IMG/VR virus record: IMGVR_UViG_2778261657_000002
Source: a virus
Lineage: Duplodnaviria; Heunggongvirae; Uroviricota; Caudoviricetes
Strand: one strand, 5' to 3'
DNA: 16,393 bases
In this document: in pieces, positions 297 through 16,393 of the stretch
Position numbering within the stretch: the stretch's first letter is position 1
Layout of the letters: the number at the start of each line of letters is the position of its first letter
Notes under the pieces: model-generated
The model's input: only the letters and a program-made list of their open reading frames with translations
What the model was told of the DNA's origin: nothing
Database searches by the model: none
Position numbers and translations under genes: made by a program

Positions 297-1337
297 CTAA
301 GCTGTCGCGACATTTTTGCGACATTTTAAGGGGTTAAGTCGCACGGCATCTTCAAGGTGGCTTGGGGCGAAATGGGCATAACGCATTGTCATAGTGATGT
401 CAGCGTGGCCGAGAATTTTTTGCAGAACCAGAATGTTCCCGCCGTTCATCATAAAGTGGCTGGCAAATGTATGGCGCAGTACATGGGTAAGCTGGCCGGA
501 GGGGAGTTCAATGCCTGCGCGTTCCAAAGCAGAGCGGAACGCGTTATAGCAGGGTTTGGGGAACAGAGCGCCTTTCGTTTCAGGCAATTCGGATAGAAGT
601 TCATCATCAAGGGGGATTGTTCTGTTGCGCTTCCCTTTGGTTTTGACGAACGTAACTTTATCGCCTGCGATCTGAGAGCTTTTCAGCGTTGCCGCTTCAT
701 TCCATCTTGCGCCGGTCGCAAGACAGATTTTTACGACTAGCTCCAAGTATTTTACTTTGCTTCGTTTGCATTCCAGCAAAAGCAGCTCAATTTCTTCAGC
801 AGTGAGGAAAGCCATTTCGGTTTCATCAGTACGATACTGTCTGACGTTTTCCAGTGGGTTGGGGGCTGACCATTCCCCGATTCGTTTCAGCTCGTTGAAC
901 ATAGCCAGGAAGTAAGCATGTTCAAGGTTCATTGTTTTCGGGGAAACCTTGGATACTCTGCTAGTGCGGGCATAATGCCCATCAAGCCTTTTTGCGCGGT
1001 AGGCCGTGAACAGCTGGGCATTAAACTCTGTAGCTAGCGGGAATCCCATGCACTCTGCCGCCCAGGTCATAGCGTCTTTGCGCTTTTGACCATTGCGCAA
1101 AGCTACTCCGTGGCGTTCATACCACATTGTGATCAGGTCTATTAAAGTTCGTTTGTCCTTCCCTTCACCCAGCCAGGGCGCACTGTCTACTTTCTGAAGC
1201 GTATGGTTCTCAAATGCCAGGGCTTCCCCCTTCGTGGCAAATTTTTTACGTATGCGCTTCCCGTTCTTACCATTACTACGGTTGACGGTGTAGAAGTCGG
1301 CGATCCATTCGCCTGTCGGAAGTTTACGAACACTCAT
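297..1337 (-). CDS. int: Phage tyrosine integrase (site-specific recombinase)
   Basis: The C-terminal catalytic region carries the tyrosine-recombinase signature LTHVLRHTFASHF...ILGHADITMTMRYAH (R, H-x-x-R and the nucleophile Y). It lies immediately downstream of the cI-like gene, with the cI stop and int ATG arranged as TGAaATG, as in 186. The ORF track starts at a TTG at 1346; I prefer the in-frame ATG at 1337. Confidence 0.93.
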   Translation of the reverse strand: MSVRKLPTGEWIADFYTVNRSNGKNGKRIRKKFATKGEALAFENHTLQKVDSAPWLGEGKDKRTLIDLITMWYERHGVALRNGQKRKDAMTWAAECMGFPLATEFNAQLFTAYRAKRLDGHYARTSRVSKVSPKTMNLEHAYFLAMFNELKRIGEWSAPNPLENVRQYRTDETEMAFLTAEEIELLLLECKRSKVKYLELVVKICLATGARWNEAATLKSSQIAGDKVTFVKTKGKRNRTIPLDDELLSELPETKGALFPKPCYNAFRSALERAGIELPSGQLTHVLRHTFASHFMMNGGNILVLQKILGHADITMTMRYAHFAPSHLEDAVRLNPLKCRKNVATA

Positions 1338-1338
1338 T

Positions 1339-1917
1339 TCATTCAATCGTCAGAACAATGCGGCCGATGATTTTTATATCGTCAATACCGCAGTCAAAAG
1401 CCATACCTACGCCGCTTACTCTAACTTTTCCCACAGGGATGCGTGTTAGTGTTCTAACGCTGGTTTTACCTTCAACTTCGACAAGCCAAACATCGTCATA
1501 AACTTCAGTAAAGTGTTGATCAACAATGTATTGCATTGTGTTATCAATCACACAGATAGGATTCTGCGGTAAAGGTTTGCCAGGTAAAAAAGTAACCTTA
1601 TCGAGCATTAGGAAACCAGACTCATAGAGTTTTCCGTCCACAATCTTCTTGCGTGGCAATTTCATGATGTCTAATTCGTCATCGTTAAACTTTCTACCTT
1701 GTCCAGTCGCAAGCCATTCCAGAGTAGCTCCTGTTTCAGCCATACATCTAACAACGATATCAGCTGGAAAAAAATCCCTCTTATACCGGTTAGCCAGACT
1801 GCTGCTTGCTATATCAAGATGTTCGGCTAGGGCTAGTTTTGTGTTGAATCCATACGCTTGGATAACTCTATCTAGTACCTCAGCTCCGCCATGAGAAAAC
1901 TCAATTTGTAGATTCAC
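1339..1917 (-). CDS. cI: 186-type CI immunity repressor
   Basis: 192 aa, the length I recall for phage 186 CI. N-terminal HTH-like segment (VLDRVIQAYGFNTKLALAEHLDIASSSLANRY). It is transcribed divergently from the apl/cII operon and sits directly upstream of int. The start is a GTG with an AAGG ribosome-binding site about 10 nt upstream. Confidence 0.85.
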   Translation of the reverse strand: MNLQIEFSHGGAEVLDRVIQAYGFNTKLALAEHLDIASSSLANRYKRDFFPADIVVRCMAETGATLEWLATGQGRKFNDDELDIMKLPRKKIVDGKLYESGFLMLDKVTFLPGKPLPQNPICVIDNTMQYIVDQHFTEVYDDVWLVEVEGKTSVRTLTRIPVGKVRVSGVGMAFDCGIDDIKIIGRIVLTIE

Positions 1918-2258: not shown

Positions 2259-2288
2259 TCCATCCTACGGATTAGGGAGAGGCAAACA

Positions 2289-2792: not shown

Positions 2793-2801
2793 GGGAGAAC
2801 C

Positions 2802-2975: not shown

Positions 2976-2984
2976 GGGGACGCT

Positions 2985-3413
2985 ATGGCGATTAGCCAGG
3001 AACAGCAAAAGCGCGGGCTGGAGCATTTAAAACAGATCCGCCGCAAATACTTCAGCGAAAGCAGCGAGGCCGCTGAATGGTGGGACAACTTGACACCGGA
3101 GTGGCGCGGCGTAGTACTTCATGCTGCTGCGGTTACTTCTGGTACCGGGGCATTTAAAGCCCATTTAAGCAAGTGCTGCTGGCGTGAGCTTTATGAACGC
3201 CTGGGCTATCGGGACATGATTCAACTGCGCCAGGGCATTTCACGGGCGCGGTTAACGTTTGAAGGTTTCGGCAGTTTACGTGACAGCGATTTTTCGAAAC
3301 GTACCGCGAACCGCCCAATCAAGAAGGTTCATCCAATTTATAGCAGCAGCGGGGTGCAGATGGTGGTTGCACCTCATATTGTCCAGAAGTTACAGCAACA
3401 GGGGAATCACTGA
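2985..3413 (+). CDS. Hypothetical early protein (142 aa)
   Basis: ORF with a GGGGGA ribosome-binding site, in the early rightward operon; no recognisable motif. Confidence 0.6.
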   Translation: MAISQEQQKRGLEHLKQIRRKYFSESSEAAEWWDNLTPEWRGVVLHAAAVTSGTGAFKAHLSKCCWRELYERLGYRDMIQLRQGISRARLTFEGFGSLRDSDFSKRTANRPIKKVHPIYSSSGVQMVVAPHIVQKLQQQGNH

Positions 3414-3814
3414 TGTCCATTATTTCGGTTGAAGGTAAATCACTAGGGGCAGAGCTGGCTGTGTGGGGCGTCCCGCATAACTACGCATTAGCGTTTGCAG
3501 AGAAAAGCACCAGTAAAAATGGGCGTATCGCTTTGCATCCGTTCTTCTTCAACGACACTGAACACATGACAAATCCGCGTCACTGGCTGGCGATCAATGC
3601 TGCTTTCTGGTGCTGCGTATATCGCGAAGCGAAAAGCAAAGAAGCCCAGATAGAAGCGCTGGCGGGGATTCGTGCAATTTTCTATACAGCCGGGGCGTTG
3701 GGCGTTGGCGAGATAAAAGCGCTGATCCAGGAGTGGTGGCGGATAACCTATGAGCTGCACCTGATTCCGGCACCGAACTACTCAGCCGCCACAGTACAAC
3801 CCACTTTTCACTAA
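3413..3814 (+). CDS. Hypothetical early protein (133 aa)
   Basis: Its start overlaps the previous stop (TGATG), indicating translational coupling; no recognisable motif. Confidence 0.6.
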   Translation: MSIISVEGKSLGAELAVWGVPHNYALAFAEKSTSKNGRIALHPFFFNDTEHMTNPRHWLAINAAFWCCVYREAKSKEAQIEALAGIRAIFYTAGALGVGEIKALIQEWWRITYELHLIPAPNYSAATVQPTFH

Positions 3815-3881
3815 TTAACAGCCTGAATTTTTTGGCCACGGTTCAAGTGGCCGGGGATTCTTTTGCCTTAAGGAAACCAAA

Positions 3882-4115
3882 ATGCACATGACACGTCAGG
3901 ATTTACCCGCAACAAAATCAGGCACCGACCTGCTGGCCATGCTCACCAAAGCCACGCAGGAAGGTAAAGCCGCAGCAGCTGATCTGTGTTCCACCCGTCT
4001 GGATAAGCTGGCCACTCATGCGGCCAATGAAGGTTTAAGCGCAACGGAAATCGTTGAGTTAATCCGCGAAGAAGCCGCAGCGATTTGCAGCAAAGGCGGT
4101 GCGGCATGGAATTGA
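3882..4115 (+). CDS. Hypothetical small protein (77 aa)
   Basis: AAGGAAA ribosome-binding site 7 nt upstream of the ATG; Ala-rich, probably helical; its 3' end overlaps the exonuclease start. Confidence 0.5.
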   Translation: MHMTRQDLPATKSGTDLLAMLTKATQEGKAAAADLCSTRLDKLATHAANEGLSATEIVELIREEAAAICSKGGAAWN

Positions 4116-4810
4116 GCACTCGCAATCAACTTTTTTCGGCCATTTTGGGTGGGGTGGTTTCTGGTGCCAGAGCTAAAGAAGGGGCTTCGTTGCGCGATGT
4201 GATTCGCCAGTGTTGGAGGATCACCGATCAGTCTCTGTATTTTTCCGACCGTCTGGAAACCGAACAACAGATAGCAAAGCGCTGGATTGATAAGGGCTTT
4301 GTCATTCTTGATACAGAAACCACAGGACTAGGATTTGATGATGAAATTGTAGAAATTTCGATCATCGACTGTGCTGGTTACGTTTTGCTTAATACGCTGG
4401 TCAAGCCATCGAAATCTATTCCAGAAGCGGCAACTGCAATTCACGGTATTACGGATGAAATGGTTGCTAATGCACCATCATGGTTGGAAATTCTGCCGAA
4501 AGTATTGGAGTTAACAAGTAAAGGCTGGGTCGCATATAACGCAAAATTTGATGCGCGTATGTTGCGCCAGTCTGGTGGGGATTATGAACAGCATGAGGAT
4601 ATATGCACCCCTGAGTGCGTAATGCAGCTGTACGCAGATTATAACGGTGAATGGGATGTTGTACGCCGTAAAACCCGCTGGAAACGACTTGTGGATGCAG
4701 CGGCGGCGCTTAAGGTTGATGCCGGAGAAGGTGCACCACATAGAGCGTTGTATGACTGCAATCTGACGCTTGGTGTGATCCTTGCTATTGCAGAAGGCGG
4801 TGCAAAATGA
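4106..4810 (+). CDS. DnaQ-like 3'-5' exonuclease (DEDDh family)
   Basis: Exo I motif ILDTETTGL, Exo II motif YNAKFD and Exo III motif H-x4-D (HRALYD) are all present in the correct order. The ATG at 4106 is preferred over the TTG at 4085 used by the ORF track. Confidence 0.85.
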
Positions 4811-5136
4811 CAATCAAAATCCACACGATAAAGATTGCGCCGAAATACCTTGATGCAGTAGTGGCTGGCCAGAAAAAGGCCGAACTGCGAAAAAACGATC
4901 GCGGGTACAAAACCGGTAATGTTCTTTCACTTTGTGAGTGGAAGCACGGGAAATACACCGGGCGTGAGTGGGCGGCGGTTATCACCCATGTTTTTCCTGT
5001 AAATGAAATTATCGCTGATACCGAAAACTGGGCGGTTTTGTCCATCTGTTCACTGTCGCCGCTTGAAGTGCTGGAATACATCATTTCAAACGGTGTCACT
5101 GAGGCGTTAGCTGGCGGAGGTCAATATGGCCGTTAA
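4807..5136 (+). CDS. ASCH/PUA-like (DUF3850-type) domain protein
   Basis: 109 aa. The N-terminal region ([40 protein letters not shown]) resembles the small beta-barrel ASCH/DUF3850 proteins common in phages. Its start overlaps the exonuclease stop (ATGA). Confidence 0.55.
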
Positions 5137-5986
5137 AACTCCGCTTAAATGGGTGGGCAGCAAAGCCCGCCTTATGCCTAAGCTGCGTCCGCACCTTCCA
5201 GAAGGTAAACGCCTGGTTGAACCGTTCGCAGGTTCCTGCGCCGTCATGATGAATACGGATTATGACGAGTATCTGATCGCAGATGTGAATCCTGATCTGG
5301 TTAATCTTTATAAGGCGATGGCGTATCACACTGATGCGCTGCTGAATGAGCTGGAGATCCTGTTTACTGCCAGTTCGTTAGGTGATGAAGAAAGCCGTGC
5401 CGTTTTCTATTACGCCGTGCGTGATGCTTTCAATCTTTCTGGTGGTAAGGCTGGTTCTGAATCTGTTGAAAATGCTGCGCGTTTCCTGTACCTGAATCGC
5501 CACTGCTTCAATGGCCTGTGCCGGTATAACCGCCGAGGACAGTTCAACGTCCCGTTCGGTAAGTACAAAAAGCCTTATTTCCCCGCTGATGAAATCCGCG
5601 CCTTTGCTGAAAAAGCGAAACGCGCAACGTTCATTACTGCCCACTATTCAGAAACACTCGATTTGGTTCGGGACGGGAATGACGTTGTTTACTGTGATCC
5701 GCCTTATCTGACTGAAAGCGACAATTTCACCGCTTACCATGAGCGCGGTTTTACGCATATGGATCAGGGGAGGCTGGCGCGTAAGTTGCGCCGTCTGGCC
5801 AGAAAAGGTGTGCCGGTTGTGGCCTCTAACGCCGATCTGGAAATGGTTCATTACCTGTACGCCGGATTTGAAGCCGTTCGCGTTAATGCCCCGCGAAGTA
5901 TTGGTGCCGCAGCTACATGCCAAAAGACGGCCGCTGAGTTGATTCTGAAGTCTCCGCTTGATTCCATTGTGGTGGCTTGTGCATGA
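5126..5986 (+). CDS. dam: Dam-family DNA N6-adenine methyltransferase
   Basis: Catalytic DPPY motif (VVYCDPPYL), N-terminal AdoMet-binding region (KWVGSKARL...EPFAGSCAV) and overall length typical of GATC-type Dam methylases. GGAGG ribosome-binding site. The target specificity is not shown by the sequence. Confidence 0.9.
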
Positions 5987-8004
5987 CGCTGGCAATAAAC
6001 GAACAATGCTATGCCGTTGATGCCTGGAGGCGGGAAACATTCGCGCCAGGCACTCCGGCAGACGCGACAATCACAGAACGCCGCCTGTGGGCTGTAAACC
6101 CGCAGGATTATGAATGGCGATCCCGGTACCTGCATGAGATACCCGACTGGTTAGCCGGGTATTTTGGCCGTCGTTACGAAAAGCTTTTTTCTGGCCGTGA
6201 CGGGCGTCGCCGTGCCAATACATTCCTGCGCAAAACAATCGGTGAGAATGTATTGCCACGTCTGCGCAAAGTGGCTGCGCGTTACTCGCTGGCCGCTGAT
6301 GCTGCTGATCTTCCTTTTGGTAAGTCGCTGGAGCGCTTGCCGTCACTAGACCGTCCTGATCTTAAAAAACTGGCTGGCCAGATATCTGGCTGGATTTCCC
6401 AGTCACTTTATGACTTCACCGAACAGTTTGATTCCGGCGCTGACGACGCCAGAGAGCTGCATCGCCGCACCCTGGAATCATACCGCCATCTTTGTGCCTG
6501 TTGCCTGATGCTGAATAACCAGCCGCCGTACTGGGCTGAACATGAGGCCAATGAAGGTCAACTGGAAATGCGTAAGGCGGAATCCGGGATACTGCGCATG
6601 ATGGCGCCGGAATGGTGGTACCTGCGTTTTAAACGTGCTCGTGATACGCAGCGCGAGCACATGGCCATTACGGTGGGACAGGTGCAAAAAGCGGCCAGCG
6701 CTTATGTATCTCGCAAAACACTGGGCGAATGGATAGACCAGAAAAAGCGGAATCTGGAGTTCTTTAAAAAGTTTGATCTGCTGAATGATGAGGGGCTGCG
6801 CATTGCACTGGACAGCATGGTGCACCGCAGCGTTGCAAATCCGGCGATCCGTCGATGTGAACTAATGGTAAGAATGCGAGGGTTCGAAGATATGGCCAAT
6901 GAAGAAGGGCTGGCCGGTGAGTTTTACACTATCACCGCGCCATCACGTTTCCATGCGGTTCACAGCAAAGGGGGCTTTGTATCGCAATGGGATGGAAGTA
7001 CACCGCAGGATACCCAGCGCTATTTATGCGGCGTATGGGCAAAAGCACGCGCAGCGATCTCGCGTGCGGGTATTCATGTATTTGGGTTTCGGGTTGTTGA
7101 GCCTCACCATGACGGGACACCGCACTGGCATATGTTGCTTTTTATGCGTCCGCAGGACGTGGACACGGTGCGCGATATTCTTTGCTATCACGCCAGAATT
7201 ACCGATTCTGAAGAACTGCAATCTGAAAAGGCGCTGAAGGCACGTTTTCATGTTGAAGCTATCGATCCCGCCAAAGGTTCGGCCACGGGCTACATCGCGA
7301 AATACATTTCAAAAAATATTGATGGTTTTGCGCTTGATGGTGAGCAGGACGAAGAAACCGGCGAAAACCTGCGTGATATGGCTAAGTCCGTTTCCGCGTG
7401 GGCTTCACGCTGGCGTATTCGCCAGTTTCAGCAGATTGGTGGTGCGCCGGTAACCGTCTGGCGTGAGCTGCGTCGGTTGCGGGATCAGGTACTGACAGAT
7501 CGCAGAATGGATGCGGTTCTGGCCGCTGCTGATGTCGGGGACTGGGCTGCATATACCCAGGCGCAGGGAGGGGCACTGGTTGCCCGCCGTGATCTGGTTG
7601 TTCGTCTGGCCTATGAAATTACGGAACAGGGCAACGAATACGCGGAGGACGTGCAGCGCGTACAGGGTGTTTATTCTCCTTTGGTTCCTGATTCAGAAGT
7701 TTGCACCCGTCTGGTTAAGTGGCAAAAGGTTGCGAAGTTGGCCGAAGCGCCAGCGGAGGCGGGTTTTTCTGGCGGCAACGCCGCCCCTTGGAGTTCTGTC
7801 AATAACTGTACGGAAGGGGGAACCCGCAGACGGTTAAAACTGGAATTATGCAGTCGGGGTTTTGATGGTTCTGATGAAGAAATAGCGATTCTCCTGCGGG
7901 GTAGTGGTTTGAGATTTGGTCAGGGCGCTCTGATTTACCGCAACGGACGGCTTAAAGAGACTCAAAACGAGCCATTACAGGAGCTGTGGCCGGGGTGGTT
8001 ATAG
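5983..8004 (+). CDS. A: Replication initiation protein gpA (rolling-circle nickase)
   Basis: About 674 aa, with the metal-binding HUH-type motif (TPHWHMLLF) and the paired active-site tyrosines (GYIAKYISK) characteristic of the P2/186 A protein. The start overlaps the dam stop (ATGA). The origin should lie inside this gene but I could not locate it. Confidence 0.9.
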   Translation: MTLAINEQCYAVDAWRRETFAPGTPADATITERRLWAVNPQDYEWRSRYLHEIPDWLAGYFGRRYEKLFSGRDGRRRANTFLRKTIGENVLPRLRKVAARYSLAADAADLPFGKSLERLPSLDRPDLKKLAGQISGWISQSLYDFTEQFDSGADDARELHRRTLESYRHLCACCLMLNNQPPYWAEHEANEGQLEMRKAESGILRMMAPEWWYLRFKRARDTQREHMAITVGQVQKAASAYVSRKTLGEWIDQKKRNLEFFKKFDLLNDEGLRIALDSMVHRSVANPAIRRCELMVRMRGFEDMANEEGLAGEFYTITAPSRFHAVHSKGGFVSQWDGSTPQDTQRYLCGVWAKARAAISRAGIHVFGFRVVEPHHDGTPHWHMLLFMRPQDVDTVRDILCYHARITDSEELQSEKALKARFHVEAIDPAKGSATGYIAKYISKNIDGFALDGEQDEETGENLRDMAKSVSAWASRWRIRQFQQIGGAPVTVWRELRRLRDQVLTDRRMDAVLAAADVGDWAAYTQAQGGALVARRDLVVRLAYEITEQGNEYAEDVQRVQGVYSPLVPDSEVCTRLVKWQKVAKLAEAPAEAGFSGGNAAPWSSVNNCTEGGTRRRLKLELCSRGFDGSDEEIAILLRGSGLRFGQGALIYRNGRLKETQNEPLQELWPGWL

Positions 8005-8081
8005 CGGTGTAAGTATGTGAAAGGCATTCATTTGTCAGTAGATGGCAGGAAATTAAATTTCACAATTCGTGCTTTAAGGTG

Positions 8082-8101
8082 TACTGTATGTATATCCAGT
8101 T
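8082..8101 (+). promoter_or_regulatory. Candidate LexA (SOS) box
   Basis: TACTGTATGTATATCCAGTT matches the E. coli LexA consensus TACTGTATATATATACAGTA at 17 of 20 positions, with CTG-N10-CAG retained. It lies 22 bp upstream of the ATG at 8124. Confidence 0.5.
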
Positions 8102-8123
8102 ATTTATTGCTTGTGGGGGCTAA

Positions 8124-8330
8124 ATGGATCTTTTGGAGGCGTCGGCACAGCTGGAACGCATTGAGTTATTGGCCAAAATTGCCCATATTTACGAAAGTAA
8201 CCAGAGAGAGAAAACAATCGCTTTGGCCTGGATTGGAGAGCTTGCGGGAGAGGTTCGCGAAATGGTAAAAAAGGAAGGGCAACGCCCCCAGAATGGGGGC
8301 ATTTTAGGCGGCGGGGGGCATTTTCAGTAG
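8124..8330 (+). CDS. Small ORF downstream of the LexA box; candidate Tum-like SOS-inducible antirepressor
   Basis: 68-aa ORF (MDLLEASAQLERIELLAKIAHIYESNQREKTIALAWIGELAGEVREMVKK...) with a balanced, helical-looking composition and a GGGGG stretch 5 nt upstream of the ATG. Position after gene A and behind a LexA box parallels tum of phage 186. The function is inferred from context only. Confidence 0.4.
   Translation: MDLLEASAQLERIELLAKIAHIYESNQREKTIALAWIGELAGEVREMVKKEGQRPQNGGILGGGGHFQ
8262..8300 (-). terminator. Candidate intrinsic terminator for the minus-strand late operon
   Basis: On the minus strand, immediately after the ogr stop: GCCCCC-attct-GGGGGC hairpin, then gttGCCCttcc and a TTTTTT run. 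The T-run is not directly adjacent to the main stem, so this is tentative. Confidence 0.35.
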
Positions 8331-8627
8331 GTCTAATGCCATCTGGCGCTGATCGGGTGAAAGTGCATTCAGTATTTTTTGCACCATCGCATCACCCGTT
8401 TTAGCGCTGGGGCTGAGAGTGTGGGAGAACGTCAGATTCATAACAAACGTGTGGCCACACTCAACATCTGAACAGGCGCAGTAAATATCCGCAATCTGCC
8501 GGTGCTTCCGGTTCGTTTTACGAATAACAGCCTTTGAGCCGCATTCCGGGCATTCGATTTTCAGAACTCGCATATTCCATGCTCCAGCTGTTAAATGATG
8601 CCTGGATTTTAGCCTGTTTCGCCTCAT
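8304..8627 (-). CDS. ogr: Ogr/Delta-family zinc-finger late-gene transcription activator
   Basis: Contains C-P-x-C ... Y-C-x-C-x4-C-x2-T-F (ECPECGSKAV...IYCACSDVECGHTF), matching the Cys pattern I recall for P2 Ogr and 186 B. The ATG overlaps the portal stop (ATGA). An internal Met (MRVLKIECPEC, start at 8573) is an alternative start. Confidence 0.8.
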   Translation of the reverse strand: MRRNRLKSRHHLTAGAWNMRVLKIECPECGSKAVIRKTNRKHRQIADIYCACSDVECGHTFVMNLTFSHTLSPSAKTGDAMVQKILNALSPDQRQMALDLLKMPPAA

Positions 8628-9685
8628 GCCGCACCCTTATCCGTTGATTCTGTGTAACTTAAATCAAAGTTAAGGTGTAGCCTTTTCGGTATTTCGGGAT
8701 CGCCGTTAACGGCCAGCATGAAACGGCGCTGGATGGGGGCTATTTCGCTTTTCTTGTAAATGCGTTCAGCCTTTTCAACATCCCCCAGTCCGGCAGTGTT
8801 CTGCGGGACAATACCGGCGAGGCCAGCAGGGAAACGGTGCGCGTTCAGAATGTCCTGGGCGCTGATGTTTTTGATATTGGCAAATTCATCTTTTGCAGAA
8901 ATATCCCCCATTTCGATGAACTTGATTGCATCCCCATCCCCGCCTGGTATGTTCACCAGAATAGTGGAGAAGTTACCGATACCTTTGCTGTCACGCAGCT
9001 GCTGTTCAATTTCTTCTTCCATTTCATCCGTCATACTGGGATCGCGGGTATAAAGAATACCGCCTGTGTGCGCACCGTTGTGGTAATAGCGGCGTCGGAA
9101 AATGACCGCTTCACTGTTAAGTAACGCGGAATGCACACCGCCGATGTAGTCTGGCAGTCCGTAGATATGCTGTTGCGGGTCATACATTTTGATAAAGATA
9201 ATATCTTCTTCTGGCCATACCTGCGGTTCCCCTTCCTGTAACACCACGTAGTCACCGGGTTTATCCTGGGCGTTATCTCTGACTTTGCGGCGGCGAATAT
9301 ACAGACCGGGCAAGGGTTCAAGTGCGATCACGTCGCCCCAGCCGTTACGAATTTTGGCAATCGCAATATCCCCAAAGGTTATATAGTCAAACGCTGCCGC
9401 TTCCAGCTGGTCGTGAATAAGCCCGCCCCCCTGATAGTCTGAAACAATCATGTTTTTACGGGCGTGAATGATGCCGCCGTGCTGACCGTTAAGATTAATC
9501 AGTTGTGCGAGTGCCAGCCGGTCAATCGGCTGGGTGAAGTGATCGGCGGCATTGTCGTACCAGATATCACGGTAATCTGTGCCGGTAGTCAGAACCGGTT
9601 CAGGTTTGCCGAATGTGATAATGCTCATCTTTTTTGATTTGTCGCCGCGCTGGTCGCGCTTAACAAAGCGTTTCTTTTTACTCAT
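8624..9685 (-). CDS. Q: Portal protein (gpQ-like)
   Basis: 353 aa (P2 gpQ is about 344 aa). It lies immediately downstream of, and overlaps by ATGA, the terminase large subunit gene, and is divergent from the scaffold and capsid genes, as in P2. Confidence 0.85.
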   Translation of the reverse strand: MSKKKRFVKRDQRGDKSKKMSIITFGKPEPVLTTGTDYRDIWYDNAADHFTQPIDRLALAQLINLNGQHGGIIHARKNMIVSDYQGGGLIHDQLEAAAFDYITFGDIAIAKIRNGWGDVIALEPLPGLYIRRRKVRDNAQDKPGDYVVLQEGEPQVWPEEDIIFIKMYDPQQHIYGLPDYIGGVHSALLNSEAVIFRRRYYHNGAHTGGILYTRDPSMTDEMEEEIEQQLRDSKGIGNFSTILVNIPGGDGDAIKFIEMGDISAKDEFANIKNISAQDILNAHRFPAGLAGIVPQNTAGLGDVEKAERIYKKSEIAPIQRRFMLAVNGDPEIPKRLHLNFDLSYTESTDKGAA

Positions 9686-11457
9686 GCTGCCTCTTTCCTT
9701 ACACCCCAGCGGGATTTCGGTTTGTTTTCATAGTTAAGGGGTTCGTTATGCAGACCGTGGGTAATCGCCCAGAATGCCTCTGCGTGGCCGGTATCCTGGC
9801 TGCGGTCAGCGACAAACGTCATGGTGTTGCCGCTTTGTGTGGTGGTTCGGCGCACAGACATAAAGCTGGCGGCGATCTCTTTCATATTTTTATCCCACTC
9901 AATACGCTGGCTTTCCACCACGTCCACCGCTTTCAGTACCAGCTTATTTTTTGTGTTCAGGTCGTAACGAATGGGGACGGCCACGCGCATGGCAAAATGC
10001 TGAATGTTGTCAAAAACACCCTGGCCAATGCCGGTAACGTCCACCCCCAGATAAGTGAAGTTGTATTTTTTGAACAACTGCTCGATCTGTTTTGCCTGGT
10101 ACCGGAAGTTCATGCCTTTCCAGTAAATCACCTTCAGAACGCGGAACTTCTCCACGGCGAGCATCGGTGGGGCGATGATGACAAAACAGGACAAATCCCC
10201 GCTGCGAGCCGGGTCAAAGCCACCCCACACTGGCCTGTCACCGAATGGCCGCGCTGCATCAGGGTTGTGATCCTGCCAGGTGTCGATTTCAACTCCGCAG
10301 GCTTCCAGGTCGGAAAAGCTGAAAACGGAGTCTTTGCTGTCAACGAACACGCACATATAGAGCATGTTAAAAGTGGCGTCGTTGTAGCGGTTGCGAAGTT
10401 TCTCGATGTTCGCCAGGTTGAAACCGCCCGTAATGGCATCTTCCATCGTAATGACGTAGCGCCATTGCCCATCCGGGCAGAGTCGCCCGCCGTCACGCAT
10501 TTCGTTAAAAGACGGAAACTTAATGGCCGCACGTTTTTTACTGCCCTGTTTCCACTCATCGCCCGTCCAGAACGGGTAAGCCTGGTGCGTTTTTGCTGAT
10601 GGCGTTGAAAAATAGGTGGTACGCCACTTGTCATGTGTGGCCATTGCGCTGGCCACTTCGTTAAGTTTTGCAAAGTTTGGCACCCAGAAATATTCGTCAC
10701 AGTACAGGTGGCCACTGTAGGACTGGGCGGTGTTTTTGTTGGTGGAGAGAAAACGCAGTTCTGCGCCGTTGCTTAAGCGGATCGGGTTGCCGGTCAGCGT
10801 AATACCGAAATACTGCTCTGCAATATTCACGATGTAAGACCGGAACACTTCAGCCTGAGCCTTTGACGCTGACAGAAAGATTTGCGGAGCGCCGGTCATC
10901 ACCGCGTTTTCAAACGCTTCAAACGCAAAATACCAGGTCGCACCGATCTGGCGGCTTTTCAGGATGTTCCTGACAAGCTGGCCAATGTTATTGCGCAGGT
11001 GTTTCTGATATTCAAAAAGATGTTCCTCAGCCCATGCGTCAAAGTCCTCCTGCGTCAGCGAGGTAATATCGTTTTTCTTGTATTTCCGTTTACTGCGCGG
11101 TTCGTCGTCATTGTTGTCTCGTGCAGCTGCTTGCCCGGAACTCTGACCGCTGGCCATTTTCTCTTTGTGTTTATTACTCTGCGCACGCAGTTTCGTGGCA
11201 TGAGCAATGAGCATGTCCATTTCTTTCAGGTCTAGATCGGTTTTGTTATCGCGGCTGGCCAGCAGCTGGTAACGGCGTTCAATTGCTTCCTCTGTGCTTT
11301 CAAAACTGAGCAAATCCGCCCAGCTGTATTTCTCCGCCCAGTAGTAAACGATCCGCGCATTCGGCAGATTTAATTCAGATGCGATTTCCTTTGGCGTATA
11401 GCGGCGCAGATAAAGTGCGCGAACAACGCCTTTTAATTCTTCAGAGTATTTAGCCAT
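9682..11457 (-). CDS. P: Terminase large (ATPase) subunit (gpP-like)
   Basis: 591 aa (P2 gpP is about 590 aa). Terminase-type deviant Walker A (KSRQIGAT, compare T4 gp17 SRQLGKT). First gene of the leftward late operon. Confidence 0.9.
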   Translation of the reverse strand: MAKYSEELKGVVRALYLRRYTPKEIASELNLPNARIVYYWAEKYSWADLLSFESTEEAIERRYQLLASRDNKTDLDLKEMDMLIAHATKLRAQSNKHKEKMASGQSSGQAAARDNNDDEPRSKRKYKKNDITSLTQEDFDAWAEEHLFEYQKHLRNNIGQLVRNILKSRQIGATWYFAFEAFENAVMTGAPQIFLSASKAQAEVFRSYIVNIAEQYFGITLTGNPIRLSNGAELRFLSTNKNTAQSYSGHLYCDEYFWVPNFAKLNEVASAMATHDKWRTTYFSTPSAKTHQAYPFWTGDEWKQGSKKRAAIKFPSFNEMRDGGRLCPDGQWRYVITMEDAITGGFNLANIEKLRNRYNDATFNMLYMCVFVDSKDSVFSFSDLEACGVEIDTWQDHNPDAARPFGDRPVWGGFDPARSGDLSCFVIIAPPMLAVEKFRVLKVIYWKGMNFRYQAKQIEQLFKKYNFTYLGVDVTGIGQGVFDNIQHFAMRVAVPIRYDLNTKNKLVLKAVDVVESQRIEWDKNMKEIAASFMSVRRTTTQSGNTMTFVADRSQDTGHAEAFWAITHGLHNEPLNYENKPKSRWGVRKEAA

Positions 11458-11619
11458 ACGGATAATTATGCCGTGGTTGTGATGAAAAAACGGTGGTGTT
11501 AATTCGTGTCTGTTCGGTAAAGCGTTATAACCGAACTGTTCAGAATAAAGCGTAATGCAGTGGCGGTTTTATTTGGCAATAATTGAGTTCGCAGGGTCAG
11601 TGAATAAATCAGGGGGGAT
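11458..11619. promoter_or_regulatory. Divergent late promoter region between P and O
   Basis: Intergenic region between divergently transcribed terminase and scaffold genes, where P2 has its Ogr-dependent late promoters. Contains the inverted repeat GTTCGGT-N11-ACCGAAC (11512..11536). I could not find the exact TGT-N12-ACA spacing I recall for P2 late promoters. Confidence 0.4.
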
Positions 11620-12420
11620 ATGTCGCATTTAAAAACTGACTGGCTGTGTGTTGCCACAGAAGGCGATACGGTTGATGGCAGGGTCATGGAACGGCAATGG
11701 ATTATTGACATGGGGGAAACCTATGATGTCACCAATTATGCCGCACTAATCTGGCCTGAACATGAACGATATGCCGGTAATTTTGGCGAAGTGCTAAAGG
11801 CGATGTGGCAGGACGGGGAAGATGGGCTGGCACGATTATATGTGAGCCTGTGTCCTAACAAGCGCCTGTTGTATGCCAATGATGAAGGGCAATTGCTTTA
11901 TTTCTCTGTTGAGCCAGAACTTAACTGGCGCGGAGGTGAGCGAACGTATCTGGGCGGACTGGCCGTAACGGACAATCCCGCCAGTGTGGGCACTACACGG
12001 TTGCGCTTTAGTCGGCGCAGACTATCAAAACAGGGATATTACAGTTGCGTAATTTCCCGTGACGGAAAAATTAAGCAGGAAGAACTGATGAAAAAAACCT
12101 GGCACCATTTATTTGGCATTAAGCCAAAGTTTGAAAGCGAAGGTCAGCAGGATGATACGCAGCAGGGTGATGATAAATTGCAGGCGCTTGCGAATGCTGT
12201 TAACGATCTGGAAGCGCGAGTGGGGGCAATTGAAACACAACTGAGCACTGTTCAGGAAGATGTGGATACTATTGTTGAAGTTGTGGACACGGAAGAGTTT
12301 GCGGCCATTCGTGATAATGCGAAAGAAATCGTAACCCGTTTTAACGATCTGGATAATAAGAATACCCGCTCACCGGGGCGTAAAATTTCAGAAAAAGCCG
12401 GGAAATATAATTTTCTGTAA
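11620..12420 (+). CDS. O: Capsid scaffolding protein (gpO-like)
   Basis: 266 aa. The segments TEGDTVDGRVM and YLGGLAVTDNPASVGTT match what I recall of P2 gpO (GDTCDGRVI, YLVGLAVTDDPASLGT). AGGGGGG ribosome-binding site. Confidence 0.85.
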   Translation: MSHLKTDWLCVATEGDTVDGRVMERQWIIDMGETYDVTNYAALIWPEHERYAGNFGEVLKAMWQDGEDGLARLYVSLCPNKRLLYANDEGQLLYFSVEPELNWRGGERTYLGGLAVTDNPASVGTTRLRFSRRRLSKQGYYSCVISRDGKIKQEELMKKTWHHLFGIKPKFESEGQQDDTQQGDDKLQALANAVNDLEARVGAIETQLSTVQEDVDTIVEVVDTEEFAAIRDNAKEIVTRFNDLDNKNTRSPGRKISEKAGKYNFL

Positions 12421-12483
12421 TTCGCTTTAACGCTGATTAGCCCAGAATAAATTTTATATATCGCTTAATTGCGAGGGAGTTTT

Positions 12484-14532
12484 ATGCACCTTAATAATCG
12501 TGCGCGGGATTTACTGGATAAATATTCGGCGGGGATGGCGCAGCATTTTGGCGCACGTGATACCAGTCGTTATTTTTCCCTGAATGACCCGCAGGAAAAT
12601 GCGCTGCGTCTTGCGTTGCTGGAGTCCGTCGAGTTCCTGAACATGATCACCTGTCTGGATGTTGACCAGCTGAGTGGTCAGGTGATTTCTGTCGGTTCTT
12701 CCGTGCTGCATACCGGCCGCAGTGAGAATGGCCGTTTTATTCGTCGTGTGGGTGTTGACGGTAATGACTATTCGCTGGTTGAGACAGACAGCTGCGCCGC
12801 GTTGCGCTGGGATCTGCTTTCGGTTTGGGCAAATGCGGGTAAGGATGAAAACGAGTTTTTCAATCTTGTCCAGGCATTCACCACACAGGCTTTTGCACTG
12901 GATATGCTGCGTATTGGTTTTAATGGTAAAAGCCGCGCAAAAACCACTGACCCGGAAGCCAACCCGAACGGCGAGGATGTGAACGTTGGCTGGCATGAGC
13001 GTATGAAAACGCTGCTGGGCGGCAATCAGATTATGACCGATCCCGTGGTGCTCGATGAGGCCGGGGATTACAAGTCACTGGATGCAATGGCGTCCGATCT
13101 GATTAACGCCAAAATCCCGGCGCAGTTCCGCAATGACCCGCGTCTGGTTGTCCTTGTCGGTGCCGATCTGGTCGCTGCTGAACAGTACCGACTGTATCAG
13201 GCAGCTGACCGTCCGACTGAAAAAATTGCTGCGCAGATGCTGGGGAGCACCATTGCTGGCCGTCAGGCCATTATCCAGGATTACATCTGGTACCAGTTAC
13301 CTGATGGTTCGCTTTACGTCGGCGGCGTAGAAAAGTCATTGTTTGCCGGTCGTCCAGTAGAAATCCCGTCAGAGTTCAGCCAGGGGGCTGCTGGCGGTAA
13401 CTCTGTGACATTACCAGTGATCCAGACTATACGGCCAGGGGTGGAGATGAACGGTGAACGCGTGACTAAAGTTCACCTGACTAATGACACGATGGCGATC
13501 ACATGGACGCCGAGAAACCGCGCAACGGGTAAACCTTTGCAGAAAACACCAGCGCAACGGCAGATTGAAAGCCATTACCCGGAACTGGCATCCGGGCTTC
13601 ATTTGCCAAAGATGGCCAGAGTCGTGGCGCATTCAGAGCCGGTAAAAAGCGGTAACTTTGCCGATCCCTTCCGGCCACGTTACGCCGTGGACGTGCAGCT
13701 GCTTGACGCAGACGGAAATCCGGACAATCAGACGCCTGTTTATTCAGCGGTGCCGCTGCCGGTACCAATGGCCGGGAATGATTCAGGTATGTTTCAGTTC
13801 CCGCCAGAAGGGACGCTGGTTGAGGTCGCATTCACAGGAGGCAGACCGGATAAACCTTTTATCAGGCAGACGCTGCCGAATGGTACCAGTCTGCCGGACG
13901 TTAAACCCGGTGAGCAATTGCAGCAGCAGCGGGAAGAAGTATCCCAGAGGGTGACTCTGGCGGGTGACTGGGTAAGGCAGACCGATCAGACCATCAGTGA
14001 AACATCGATGGTGCGAACGGTAAAAGCAGATACAGAACAACGTGATCTGGTCAGTCGCGAAACCACGGTTAAAGCCACGGATAAAACCATTGTGGTGGGG
14101 ACCGCCACCCTGCTAGCCGGAGCCTTTCAGCAGGTCAGTGCCGGGGATTTTAGCCAGGCCGTGAAAGGTAACAGGCTGGCCAGCATTGAAGGAAACGAAG
14201 AAACGGACATAGCAGGACAGCAGTCCATTAAAGTGGGCGGTGCTGTAGCCGTGGAGGTTGGCGAAAGCCTGACAGAGAAGATTGCCGCGCTGCGTAAATC
14301 AGTGGCCGCTGGCGGTCAGCAGGTCATGGGGGAAACAGTCCATATTGGCAGTGAGAATATCAACGCCCTGACCATGATGCTGGACACTATTGATTTACTG
14401 GCAGAACTGGCGCTGCAATGCGCGAACCATTCACACCCCACCGTTGGGACTCCAACCAATGCCGCCGCGTTCACACAGACGGCGACGAAAGCCGGGCAGA
14501 CCCGGAGCAAGTACCAGAACATCATTGCCTGA
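12484..14532 (+). CDS. Chimeric ORF: N-terminal gpN-like major capsid region fused in frame to a C-terminal gpV-like baseplate spike region
   Basis: About 682 aa from the ATG at 12484 (GAGGGAG ribosome-binding site), roughly twice the size of P2 gpN (about 357 aa). The N-terminal third to half has capsid-like segments (GFNGKSRAKTTDPEANP...VGW, GDYKSLDAM, DPRLVVLVGADL). The C-terminal part has an OB-fold-like segment (FPPEGTLVEVAFTGGRPDKPF) and a terminal HxH motif (CANHSHPTVG) like the iron-binding spike tip of gpV-type proteins. No stop codon or frameshift separates the two parts. Confidence 0.6.
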   Translation: MHLNNRARDLLDKYSAGMAQHFGARDTSRYFSLNDPQENALRLALLESVEFLNMITCLDVDQLSGQVISVGSSVLHTGRSENGRFIRRVGVDGNDYSLVETDSCAALRWDLLSVWANAGKDENEFFNLVQAFTTQAFALDMLRIGFNGKSRAKTTDPEANPNGEDVNVGWHERMKTLLGGNQIMTDPVVLDEAGDYKSLDAMASDLINAKIPAQFRNDPRLVVLVGADLVAAEQYRLYQAADRPTEKIAAQMLGSTIAGRQAIIQDYIWYQLPDGSLYVGGVEKSLFAGRPVEIPSEFSQGAAGGNSVTLPVIQTIRPGVEMNGERVTKVHLTNDTMAITWTPRNRATGKPLQKTPAQRQIESHYPELASGLHLPKMARVVAHSEPVKSGNFADPFRPRYAVDVQLLDADGNPDNQTPVYSAVPLPVPMAGNDSGMFQFPPEGTLVEVAFTGGRPDKPFIRQTLPNGTSLPDVKPGEQLQQQREEVSQRVTLAGDWVRQTDQTISETSMVRTVKADTEQRDLVSRETTVKATDKTIVVGTATLLAGAFQQVSAGDFSQAVKGNRLASIEGNEETDIAGQQSIKVGGAVAVEVGESLTEKIAALRKSVAAGGQQVMGETVHIGSENINALTMMLDTIDLLAELALQCANHSHPTVGTPTNAAAFTQTATKAGQTRSKYQNIIA

Positions 14533-14622
14533 CCATTCCAGACAGCCCACAAAACGCGGGGTTTGTCGTTTTCTCAGTTCCTTGATAGGATTATTGCATA
14601 CTCAAATGATAGGAATAGGGAT

Positions 14623-14955
14623 ATGAAAAATTTCATTATATTAGCTGTAGGAGCAGCAGTTTCATTCAATGTGTTTGCGGCTGAGGTTGTTTATGTGCCA
14701 ACAGATACGAAGGCTAGTTACACGATTTTAGATAAGACTCGCGACGGCAGCATGGCTACTATAACAACCGAAAGAAAGGGGCCGTCTGGAACATCATATT
14801 CAAAGCGGCTGTACGACTGTACTGCCGGGACAGTTAAATATCTTGGAGACGGTGAGACCATCGAGCAGATGAATAACTCGGCACCAGATCCAAATATGGC
14901 CCCTATAGTTGACCGCTCAATTGCATACTACATTGGACAAAAAGCCTGTCAGTAA
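14623..14955 (+). CDS. Small exported protein of unknown function (110 aa with a signal peptide)
   Basis: N-terminal MKNFIILAVGAAVSFNVFA-AEV is a typical Sec signal peptide with an AXA-like cleavage site. Two cysteines in the mature part, AGGAA-type ribosome-binding site, followed by a strong intrinsic terminator. GC content is lower than in the phage genes. The ORF track's longer form starts at 14563, but the signal peptide begins at M21. Confidence 0.6.
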   Translation: MKNFIILAVGAAVSFNVFAAEVVYVPTDTKASYTILDKTRDGSMATITTERKGPSGTSYSKRLYDCTAGTVKYLGDGETIEQMNNSAPDPNMAPIVDRSIAYYIGQKACQ

Positions 14956-14995
14956 CTACGTTCTTATATCGGTTGATATGAATTGAACACACCTT

Positions 14996-15020
14996 AACCC
15001 GCATTGTGCGGGTTTTTTTG
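14996..15020 (+). terminator. Rho-independent terminator
   Basis: AACCCGCA-ttg-TGCGGGTT hairpin followed directly by TTTTTTT, 40 nt after the stop of the exported-protein ORF. Confidence 0.75.
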
Positions 15021-15532
15021 TACCCACCACCAGACCGCACAGAACGCTCTCAGCAGGCGGGACAACACTAGGGTAACCACTGCGACACCGCAATAAGATC
15101 AAATTCACAGCGACGCTCTGAGGTAGCCACATGCAGACAAAATAAATCTTTCGCAGACAAAAACGGCACTACACCGCACCCGCCTGCGGTTTCTGGATCG
15201 ATAAATTTTTTCAGTTTTATTTTTCTACAAACCAGACTGTCATCTCGCGCCAGCACTGGTGGCTTTGCGGAAAACCCAAACTGAAAAGATTGAAAAGAAT
15301 TTCAGTGTTTATCAGTTTTTCGTGGGGATAAGGTTGTTGTGAGTATTCTATCTTTATGATTTATATATATTATTTTTATTTTCTTTGATGTTATATCGAA
15401 GTCGTGTTTCAGCCTGATTTATTGAACTGATTGATTTTATGGCAATTTACCATATAGATGGCTTGGATTTTATTGCAATAAATCATAAAATAGATCATTC
15501 AAAAATCAATCATTCTTTATGCTAGGTATCTT

Positions 15533-16393
15533 ATGGATAGCAAGTTGAATCTTGATGAGGCAGGTAGAATCGCTTGGCAGCATGCAGCACTTGTTTTGAG
15601 CAAGAAAATTGGTATCGGTTCTAAAAAATTTAATGAAGACCTGAAGGTTTTAATTAATCAATTTGGGAATATTGAAAACATTTATCAATATCACTTTGGC
15701 ATGGTTCCAATCGATCCTGATTTGATTCGCGTACTCGATAAAAAATTTTCCAACCTAAATTTTAAGTTTGAAGTATTACAATTTAATGATGAACTATATC
15801 CCAACGCATTGAGACAAATTTATGGGATTCCCCCAATCTATTATTATAGAGGCGATGTCAGTTTGTTGGGGATTGAGGATAGTATCTCTTTTGTTGGGAC
15901 GCGAAATCTTGATGAAAAAGCGTATATTGAACATGGTGTTGATGTTATAAAAAGATTATTTTCTGCGGGCTATAAGGTCATCGTAAGTGGATTGGCTAAA
16001 GGTTCGGATACCCTCGGACATAAAACAGCAATAGAATTAGGGGGGCGAACCATTGCTGTATTAGGAACACCTCTTGATGTATCTTATCCAGCGGAAAATA
16101 AAGTGTTGCAAAATCAAATAGCAACTGAGCATTTAGTAATTACTGAATATCCTATCGGGATTGGTAGTTTTGGAACATACTTCGCAAATAGAAACCTCAC
16201 TACCGTAAGTTTATCGCACAAAGGAATAGTAGTTGCACGTGCTGGTGATAAAAGCGGTACTCAATATGCGATCAAAACTTGTATTGAGCAAGGTAAGCCG
16301 GTTTACGTTTTGGAAAATAATATCTATGAGCCTGATTTTAAATGGGTAGAAAAATATAAAGATAAAATAAAAGTAATTAGAATGACAAAATAA
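15533..16393 (+). CDS. DprA/Smf-family (SLOG-fold) DNA-processing protein homologue
   Basis: 286 aa. The Rossmann-like core matches DprA signatures: PPIYYYRGDVSLL...ISFVGTRNL...VIVSGLAKGSDTLGHKTAIELGGRTIAVLGTPLDVSYPAENKVLQNQIA...LVITEYPIG...FANRNLTTVSLSHKGIVVARAGDKSGTQ (compare E. coli Smf VVSGLARGID..AH..AL..GG.TIAVLG.GLD.IYP..N..L). The gene is very AT-rich and stops at the last base of the window. Confidence 0.8.
   Translation: MDSKLNLDEAGRIAWQHAALVLSKKIGIGSKKFNEDLKVLINQFGNIENIYQYHFGMVPIDPDLIRVLDKKFSNLNFKFEVLQFNDELYPNALRQIYGIPPIYYYRGDVSLLGIEDSISFVGTRNLDEKAYIEHGVDVIKRLFSAGYKVIVSGLAKGSDTLGHKTAIELGGRTIAVLGTPLDVSYPAENKVLQNQIATEHLVITEYPIGIGSFGTYFANRNLTTVSLSHKGIVVARAGDKSGTQYAIKTCIEQGKPVYVLENNIYEPDFKWVEKYKDKIKVIRMTK

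Follow-up and report, generated by a model that had tools for sequence, protein, structure and literature searches.

An in-frame capsid-spike fusion gene in a P2-like prophage of Escherichia coli as the probable scar of a single recent deletion

The window (the whole stretch of viral DNA analyzed here, 16,393 nucleotides) contains an ATG-to-stop frame of 682 codons plus stop that runs without interruption and joins capsid-like to spike-like sequence. The question is whether this ORF is the scar of a large internal deletion or encodes a genuine novel fusion protein; both possibilities were raised by the initial annotation. That a single unbroken 2049-nt ORF carries a capsid/spike chimera is borne out by the ORF list and by matches to Pfam and PHROGs. 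Its parts are as follows.

12484..14532, plus strand: fusion ORF, 682 aa, capsid residues 1–264 joined in frame to spike residues 149–567
12484..13276, plus strand: P2-family major capsid gene, 5' 793 nt (the last 76 of 340 codons absent)
13272..14532, plus strand: gene of the 567-aa central hub-spike protein, 3' part, codons 149–567 (the first 148 codons absent)
13272..13276: junction of the deletion on a 5-nt microhomology, TATCC (window and the two reference breakpoints compared in a three-way alignment)

The N-terminal 264 residues strongly match the P2 gpN capsid family (PF05125, PHROG 70). The Pfam Phage_cap_P2 profile (PF05125) matches fusion residues 11–267 with an E value of 1e-72 and 245.5 bits versus a cut-off of 27, and phrog_70 (“major head protein”) matches residues 3–267. 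In contrast to members of the gpN family, the fusion is devoid of the last fifth of the capsid domain: it covers positions 2–267 of the 327-position profile, whereas the gene of the intact relative covers positions 2–326. A full-length PF05125 domain is thus not found in the fusion, from which the 76 C-terminal capsid residues are absent. Judging from the profile coverage, the capsid part would be unable to form a complete HK97-type subunit.

Residues 258–682 match phrog_2258 (“baseplate protein”, E 1e-188) and align to its final 401 positions (144–544 of 544). Residues 264–682 are colinear throughout with one 567-aa spike protein, and the stretch of about 115 residues that had been thought to fit neither family is simply native residues ~150–265 of that protein. 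The nucleotide sequence of the fusion is identical to that of its two parent genes. Annotators should be aware that NCBI files the product as “phage major capsid protein, P2 family”, though 62% of it is spike.

The spike half had been described as gpV-like. Its assignment to central spikes of the gp5/VgrG type stands, but the parent is a VgrG-like hub-plus-spike protein of 567 aa and not a gpV, which is much shorter (211 aa in P2). The segment PPEGTLVEVAFTGGRPDKPF falls within a weak match to the OB domain Phage_base_V (PF04717) on fusion residues 424–460, corresponding to residues 309–345 of the intact spike; with 22.5–22.9 bits this match is slightly below the cut-off of 23.8. In the intact spike the OB-fold-like segment is followed by a gp5-type triple-stranded β-helix: residues 413–507 match the C-terminal β-helix of T4 gp5 (search of PDB, phmmer E 3e-6, profile search E 2e-7). 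The profile search of PDB also gives weak matches to VgrG. The terminal HxH motif is present as HSH, with His534 and His536 invariant in 21 homologues; in P2 gpV and phi92 gp138 the HxH histidines of the C-terminal apex bind a metal ion. The same order of OB-fold-like segment, gp5-type β-helix and HxH apex is characteristic of VgrG, T4 gp5, P2 gpV, the eCIS spikes and Mu gp44/gp45. It differs from the central hub-spike families in that both Pfam Phage_base_V and Gp5_C remain below their gathering scores in the spike. The AlphaFold2 model of the intact spike, calculated with 21 homologues of 76–92% identity, is of poor confidence (pLDDT 47.5). The best 17 Foldseek matches of this model in PDB are all VgrG proteins, eCIS spikes and phage baseplate hub or central-spike proteins, including Mu gp44 and the E217 baseplate; with E values of 7e-9 to 3e-4 and TM of only ~0.15 they may weakly support the assignment. 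In size, as well as in these matches, the intact spike agrees with VgrG of T6SS. The position of its gene differs from that of gpV: it is located after the tail-fibre genes and adjoins a baseplate gene of the HP1_ORF34 family. Unlike complete hub-spike proteins, the window copy starts only after the first 148 residues, and the break falls within the putative N-terminal hub part.

The nearest intact relative is a prophage of E. coli 20KM0223N (NZ_CP151045.1, ~1,501,870–1,534,010), which also occurs in EC101 and MEI148-20EC. It occupies the same mntS/mntR site, has the same gene order and cargo and is 99.95% identical over the window outside the gap. It differs by an extra 13,730 bp that provide the complete capsid gene, 20 late genes and the complete 567-aa spike gene. 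Window positions 6999–13276 correspond to positions 1–6278 of the intact reference (99.95% identity) and positions 13269–16393 to its positions 20001–23125 (99.97% identity). The alignment thus contains a single 13,730-bp gap, and its flanking blocks overlap on TATCC. This pentanucleotide (7 of 8 positions over CAnTATCC) is present in one copy in the window and in one copy at each breakpoint of the intact prophage. The break falls at phase 2 in either gene. The endpoints are placed to the nucleotide by this alignment, and the junction, expected earlier between about 13280 and 13610, lies 4 nt to the left of that range. Apart from the gap, only seven SNPs, all in the left 13.3 kb, distinguish the window from the 20KM0223N prophage; there are none in the right 3.1 kb. 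The proposal that a large internal deletion created the chimera is upheld by this colinearity, and the fusion ORF is very probably what a single, recent deletion of 13,730 bp left behind in a P2-like prophage of ~32 kb. Illegitimate, microhomology-associated joining at TATCC would have brought capsid codon 264 next to spike codon 149, presumably through slippage or end-joining. One long ORF resulted because both genes chanced to share the codon phase.

The junction is known from assemblies, several of them independent, and one may ask whether it is an assembly or sequencing artefact of a prophage that is in fact intact. The junction occurs in none of 5,426 complete RefSeq E. coli genomes, as would be expected of an artefact. 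Against this, the identical 682-aa protein is found on 8 contigs from at least three independent samples, with context and junction unchanged each time, which makes a one-off misassembly very unlikely. The contigs, one of them 471 kb long, come from independent projects and assemblers; the carriers include NCBI GCA_016114235.1 and the Logan runs ERR11506692 and SRR30494797. Moreover, the two sides share 5 nt only, far too short for a k-mer or overlap assembler to be led astray, and analogous deletions exist in finished genomes (PK5, CUPF12, EcPF15, 300709 and PSJ-16). An artefact is therefore extremely improbable. In every carrier the shortened prophage occupies one and the same chromosomal site, and the fusion is restricted to near-identical carriers.

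The prophage belongs to the P2-like Peduoviridae and is of the ESSI-2/ev040 type. ESSI2_ev040 (Quadragintavirus ev040, Peduoviridae) and ESSI2_ev239 (Evevirus) have the same module order; the scaffold-capsid region (O–N) is 98% identical to that of ESSI2_ev040 and the spike is 92% identical to that of ESSI2_ev239. Both are complete virion-forming genomes of 29–31 kb with other cargo at the int-proximal end, and in both, the late genes finish with the “baseplate protein”, where the linear record ends. These temperate coliphages were recovered as virions (PMC6969025). The gap reaches from capsid nt 793 to spike nt 441; it takes out 20 whole genes and truncates both end genes. According to the gene names of the virion-producing relative ESSI2_ev040, the lost genes encode the small terminase, head completion, tail completion, sheath, tube, holin, endolysin and spanin, as well as the tape measure, baseplate, fibres and fibre chaperone, so that the entire tail is gone. 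The loss of the small terminase, head completion, tail completion and lysis genes had been predicted from the P2 gene order and is confirmed, but the deletion extends much farther than predicted because the spike is the last late gene here, after the tail fibres.

The genes upstream of the fusion are retained.

297..1337, minus strand: tyrosine integrase, intact (ORF list; annotated in NZ_CP151045.1, no SNP versus that prophage)
307..325: attL core, a 19-nt direct repeat, GCGACATTTTTGCGACATT, in its left copy (blastn-short; coordinates taken from the window/reference alignment)
1339..1917, minus strand: CI-type repressor, intact, 192 aa (Pfam Phage_CI_repr and Phage_CI_C in the counterpart L006)
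5983..8004, plus strand: gpA-type replication endonuclease, intact, 673 aa (PF05840 Phage_GPA)
8304..8627, minus strand: Ogr/Delta late-gene activator, 107 aa (ORF list and relatives)
8624..9685, minus strand: portal protein (Q), intact (ORF list and relatives)
9682..11457, minus strand: large terminase (P), intact (ORF list and relatives)
11620..12420, plus strand: GPO capsid scaffold (O), intact (ORF list and relatives)

The lengths of these genes equal those in the intact relative, in agreement with the earlier view that int, cI, replication, ogr, P, Q and O are intact. The right att copy is outside the window, immediately upstream of mntR, with one 19/19 match at the right end of the intact prophage (blastn-short). 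The remaining element of ~18.4 kb is integrated between mntS and mntR. Judging by the absent morphogenesis and lysis genes, it should be able neither to form heads or tails nor to lyse the cell, which supports the earlier claim that it cannot make virions. If the fusion product is made at all, its expression would depend on the late promoter that Ogr activates ahead of O, and it presumably has no function. The P2-type Ogr site TGT-N12-ACA gives 4 matches versus 3.9 expected, none of them in the P/O intergenic region; this region contains a 7-bp inverted repeat. Carriers may benefit, as the lysis genes are gone and immunity and cargo are kept. The overall event is ordinary prophage decay. Cryptic prophages that arose by deletional decay show the same large internal loss of lysis and morphogenesis genes and the same retention of immunity, integration and cargo; likewise, only one gap separates the present prophage from its intact relative, with att, int and immunity kept. 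There is no essential difference from other cryptic prophages, except that the present case is very young and its breakpoints are exact to the nucleotide.

The right end of the window carries cargo genes and a conserved non-coding segment.

14623..14955, plus strand: small cargo gene (RefSeq annotates 110 aa; a TTG start farther upstream gives 130 aa)
14998..15316: conserved non-coding segment (blastn of L007, L008 and L011 versus the reference)
15533..16393, plus strand: DprA-like ShosA gene, first gene of the DprA + PRTase cargo (PADLOC ShosA E 2e-52)

The small cargo protein is of the small secreted type, with a hydrophobic N-terminus and no family match. The segment 14998..15316 is conserved between prophage lineages with differing cargo, and the start of the linear ESSI-2 record falls into it (record nt 1–66 correspond to window 15118–15183). 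It is possible that this segment is the cos region; the P2 cos 19-mer gave no match with up to 3 mismatches allowed. Since the element retains int, replication, Ogr, portal, terminase and scaffold together with this probable cos, and the conserved segment coincides with the end of the linear ESSI-2 record, the shortened prophage could be regarded as a helper-dependent, satellite-like element packaged by a co-infecting full-length relative. Its gene content, however, is that of the parental prophage minus the deleted block, with a truncated capsid gene, in contrast to P4-like, PICI and cfPICI satellites, which have a conserved reduced architecture and dedicated genes for hijacking, such as those for capsid-size redirection, for a small terminase or packaging specificity of their own and for a helper-sensing activator. 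The element has no capsid-size redirector, dedicated activator, primase or small terminase of its own, it is a one-step derivative only 7 SNPs apart from an intact phage, and all carriers share one chromosomal site. Its 18.4 kb, ~57% of the parental genome, would also fit poorly into a ~32-kb head. We consider a satellite-like role highly improbable.

The ShosT partner lies beyond the window; it is the next gene of the intact prophage (PADLOC ShosT E 5e-10), where ShosA-like and ShosT-like genes are adjacent, and only ShosA is within the window. On these profile matches the two genes are assigned to a putative Shosta-type anti-phage defence system (DprA + PRTase). A DprA + PRTase system from a P2-like hotspot was tested by Rousset et al. 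2022 (PMC9122126), and their DprA + phosphoribosyltransferase/ShosTA is likewise located in the variable region of a P2-like prophage. The present ShosT-like protein differs from ShosTA by its length of 437 aa, with an extra N-terminal region that has weak matches to NIF and HAD-family phosphatase-like Pfam profiles below the cut-offs. The cargo genes form no part of the fusion.

Alternatively, selection might have favoured the fusion as a functional protein, e.g. a shortened capsid subunit fixed to a trimeric spike. Produced from the late promoter with Ogr provided by a related phage, such a protein could poison head or baseplate assembly and thus interfere with that phage. Retention of Ogr, the scaffold gene and the region upstream of O would be consistent with this, as would the absence of secondary damage in the fusion ORF. 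Many further independent deletions occur in related prophages (finished genomes include PK5, CUPF12, EcPF15, 300709 and PSJ-16). In-frame capsid-spike fusions arose independently five times (the window, P0002, P0003, P0005 and PK5), which, viewed in isolation, could point to a selected product. The five junctions are nevertheless all different, with capsid parts of 77–264 aa and spike parts starting at residues 53–347, so that no architecture is shared, and neither half of the fusion is a complete fold. At least one out-of-frame capsid-spike join exists as well (P0158).

The searches detect in-frame fusions far more readily than out-of-frame ones. All placeable deletion junctions were tallied. 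In the two frame-blind sets 4 of 10 and 3 of 9 joins are in frame (6 out of frame in each), i.e. 7 of 19 coding-to-coding joins combined versus the chance expectation of one third. With a frame-blind proportion of in-frame joins close to that expected by chance, there is no sign of a selected fusion protein, and selection for in-frame fusions was rejected. The undecayed state of the ORF is explained by its recent origin (7 SNPs in 16.4 kb versus the intact prophage). With nucleotide-identical parents, near-identical carriers and an in-frame rate equal to chance, the alternative of a genuine novel fusion protein is unsupported, and a selected function is given very little credence.

Among the deletion endpoints in the family, two sharp hot spots stand out, capsid nt 189 (3 independent lineages) and spike nt ~154–163 (~159; 4 independent lineages). 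The junction in the window coincides with neither. The octamer CTGGATGT is found a short way 5' of each hot spot, and their geometry fits a 4-nt 5'-staggered double-strand cut. One could suppose that the decay is non-random, i.e. that a sequence-directed break by a type IIS-like nuclease or a type II topoisomerase inactivates these prophages again and again and yields the recurrent capsid-spike fusions; this appears rather unlikely. Of 32 endpoints, 8 lie within 4 nt of the zone predicted for a GGATG-linked cut versus ~0.75 expected, but 7 of these belong to the two hot spots from which the idea arose. In addition, CTGGATG is a common Leu-Asp codon string that occurs 17 times on the prophage coding strand, in L008 the element itself carries a mutated left site, and no relevant GGATG restriction system for enterics was found in the literature. 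A GGATG-linked cut is suggestive only. At the spike hot spot, folding of single-stranded DNA is unremarkable (z = -1.3), there is no similarity to the att core and Chi is absent in the required orientation (by eye). A GTATAC palindrome or restriction site as its cause was rejected, as it is absent in the PK5 lineage.

Thus the fusion provides a clean and datable example of the conversion of a temperate phage into a defective prophage in one step, with little significance for the window itself. If confirmed, the endpoint hot spots would be a more interesting lead to what initiates prophage-inactivating deletions. With the exact breakpoints, an intact sister prophage and virion-forming relatives at hand, it should be possible to test directly what follows when lysis and morphogenesis are lost but immunity and a Shosta-type defence are retained.

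The fusion ORF runs uninterrupted on the + strand from an ATG at window position 12484 to a stop at 14532 in the ORF list of the window and encodes 682 amino acids. Pfam assigns residues 11–267 to the P2-family capsid domain (E 1e-72), with only positions 2–267 of the 327-position profile covered, and PHROGs assigns residues 3–267 to "major head protein" and residues 258–682 to phrog_2258 "baseplate protein" (E 1e-188, profile positions 144–544 of 544). The intact capsid gene of the reference (the ~32 kb prophage at the mntS/mntR site of E. coli 20KM0223N, NZ_CP151045.1) gives a full-length Pfam match (2–326 of 327). Because the matches of the fusion cover parts only, the ORF is, as judged from its domain assignments, a chimera in which two incomplete proteins are joined head to tail. 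It is composed of capsid residues 1–264 and spike residues 149–567 with one isoleucine common to both, and its capsid part is without the last 76 residues. The separate matches of the two halves bear out the capsid/spike chimera proposed in the initial annotation; the central stretch which it could not assign to either family is part of the baseplate family.

The intact 567-aa spike has a near-threshold Pfam match to the Phage_base_V OB domain, a gp5-type β-helix (against T4 gp5 residues 482–576, E 3e-6 with the single sequence and 2e-7 with a profile) and weak matches to VgrG that follow the expected order. The HxH motif recognized earlier is present close to the C-terminus and is invariant in 21 homologues. 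The AlphaFold2 model of the intact spike is poor (pLDDT 47.5), and the best 17 Foldseek PDB matches of this low-confidence model are all VgrG, eCIS central spikes or phage baseplate hub/central-spike proteins, Mu gp44 among the last. The protein can be read as a VgrG-like hub-plus-spike, in which case the deletion interrupts the hub part and leaves the fusion with the OB fold, helix and apex.

No single record with both halves adjacent was found by megablast against complete E. coli genomes; in three of these genomes each half is ~100% identical and the halves lie far apart. Window 1–13276 aligns to the reference with 99.95% identity (7 SNPs) and window 13269–16393 with zero true mismatches, and 13,730 bp separate the two blocks in the reference. 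The blocks overlap by CAnTATCC, the exact part of which, TATCC, occurs at both reference breakpoints. The break lies at capsid nt 789–793 and spike nt 444–448 (window 13272–13276), and not between about 13280 and 13610 as was proposed. The two genes are in identical codon phase here, therefore translation would continue across the junction. The alignment shows one deletion with 5 nt of microhomology, which is very recent, since the fusion ORF has no SNPs relative to its parent genes. The initial reading of a deletion scar was thus correct in kind, the alignment to the intact prophage being two blocks and one gap. Replication slippage or microhomology-assisted end joining may have made the join.

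Eight contigs encode an identical 682-aa protein; among them are a 471-kb contig from NCBI assembly GCA_016114235.1 and contigs assembled from two unrelated sequencing runs, and neighbours and junction coordinates are the same in all 8. These independent assemblies confirm, as far as assemblies can, that the junction is real. An assembler misled by the overlap was considered and rejected, as 5 shared nucleotides cannot mislead it.

The deletion reduced the prophage from ~32.1 kb to ~18.4 kb and removed 20 genes annotated in NZ_CP151045.1, listed here with names taken from the virion-forming relative ESSI2_ev040:

Small terminase, a small ORF, head-tail adaptor, tail terminator, tail completion, sheath, tube
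Holin, endolysin, spanin, chaperone, tape measure, three baseplate proteins
Fibre, fibre assembly, two further baseplate-associated proteins, one HP1_ORF34 family

The loss had earlier been deduced from P2 gene order, which badly underestimates it because the spike is the last late gene in the family of this prophage. The int-cI-replication-ogr-P-Q-O set is kept, as had been stated: Int, CI, Cox-like, CII, Fil, exonuclease, Dam, gpA, Ogr, portal, large terminase and scaffold are equal in length to those of the intact prophage. The att sites and the features downstream of the fusion are as follows.

Window 307–325: attL, a 19-nt direct repeat within the int 3' end
Outside the window, just before mntR: attR, the second copy of the 19-nt repeat
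Window 14563–14955: small low-GC cargo gene
Window 14998–15316: conserved non-coding segment downstream of the spike gene
Window 15533–16393: DprA-like gene with a ShosA match (PADLOC, 2e-52)

The small cargo gene, for which no family was found in Pfam or PADLOC, encodes a protein of 110 aa as annotated, or of 130 aa if an upstream TTG is the start, whose N-terminus is hydrophobic and signal-like; the gene is kept in PSJ-16 and the intact prophage. The non-coding segment is 77–89% conserved between lineages with different flanking cargo, and the linear GenBank record of Cronobacter phage ESSI-2 begins inside it (record nt 1–66 = window 15183–15118). This segment may be the cos region, although no match to the P2 cos 19-mer was found with up to 3 mismatches. 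Next to the ShosA gene, outside the window, lie a ShosT-like PRTase (437 aa, with an extra N-terminal region giving weak phosphatase-like NIF, HAD-family Pfam matches) and then a DUF6680 gene (cargo region 22265–24450 of L001, the reference stretch). The GC content of the cargo region is 38% vs ~54% in phage genes, and other lineages hold different genes at the same position. A DprA+PRTase pair of a P2-like hotspot protects against T7 and lambda (PMC9122126).

The protein search found three more capsid::spike fusions, all with junctions different from that of the window (P0002, 670 aa; P0003, 487 aa, in three samples; P0005, 454 aa). It also found the spike fused to the baseplate-region gene that precedes it (P0004). 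Searches at the DNA level gave a fifth capsid::spike fusion, in the finished PK5 genome; the prophage concerned is a related one at pheL, intact in 17 other genomes. They gave other deletions in EcPF15, 300709 and PSJ-16 as well. By annotation only, CUPF12 has a capsid annotation over a spike match, as PK5 does. Truncated spikes and capsids are also joined to cII, Dam, tail-completion, tube, endolysin, tape measure, baseplate J, fibre and ORF34 genes. The decay states in finished and draft genomes (loci L002 in EcPF15, L014 in 300709, L018 in PSJ-16, L013 and L012) include a remnant of gpM whose join lies near the ORF34 gene, remnants that carry three separate deletions, and an in-frame gpM::fibre-assembly fusion with the spike 3' end truncated too.

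Such recurrence, taken alone, could suggest selection for a fusion protein; the initial annotation had named a genuine novel fusion protein as one possibility. Counting only events found regardless of frame, as queries otherwise favour in-frame products, 4 joins are in-frame vs 6 out-of-frame in a first set and 3 vs 6 in a second. In-frame joins thus occur at the chance rate, and P0158 is an out-of-frame capsid::spike join; together these argue against selection for the fusion protein. For the same reasons the recurring fusions reflect heavy deletional decay plus ascertainment.

The deletion endpoints are unevenly distributed across related prophages. Four independent deletions (L007, L015, L019, L020) stop at spike nt ~154–163 (L001 19714–19723; GGGGTA^TACCGATC), a portion of the gene deleted from the window; their left partners are cII, Dam and two capsid positions, their chromosomal sites differ, and two further endpoints lie ≤70 nt away. 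Three other independent deletions (L024, L025, L026), in lineages with 94%, 90% and 76% identity to the reference, begin at capsid nt 189, directly after CTGGATGTTGACCAGCTG (window 12655–12672, capsid nt 172–189); their right-hand ends are in the tape measure, tube and baseplate J genes. At the joins of both groups, most microhomologies span 1–2 nt. Just downstream of the capsid hot spot, P0143, P0146 and P0149 (capsid codons 65–67) carry 1–2-nt frameshifts at nt ~196–202; they lie in three large contigs (4.5–5.5 Mb) and may be pseudogenes or sequencing errors.

The octamer CTGGATGT lies just 5' of both hot spots at a matching offset. Counting the nucleotides that follow GGATG, the capsid gene keeps its sequence up to and including the 11th and the spike gene from the 8th onward, the pattern that a 4-nt 5'-staggered cut with fill-in would leave. 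Such a geometry is compatible with a type IIS-like nuclease or with a type II topoisomerase; the staggers made by gyrase are 4 bp long (PMC6379681). As the octamer is a common Leu-Asp-Val codon string, with 4 copies in the prophage, its link to the hot spots is only suggestive. The window junction is 72–183 nt from any such site.

Transcription of the fusion would depend solely on the late promoter that precedes O. In the intergenic region between the divergent terminase and scaffold genes, no P2-type Ogr site (TGT-N12-ACA) was found; the region does contain a perfect inverted repeat of 7 bp, GTTCGGT-N11-ACCGAAC (window 11512–11536), a candidate site for the activator of the late promoter. No evidence points to a function of the fusion product. 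The host may benefit from the deletion, the lysis genes being lost and immunity and the defence cargo kept, as is usual when a prophage becomes defective. The fusion is a young, precisely mapped example of this well-known process, and of all the findings only the endpoint hot spots may merit more study.
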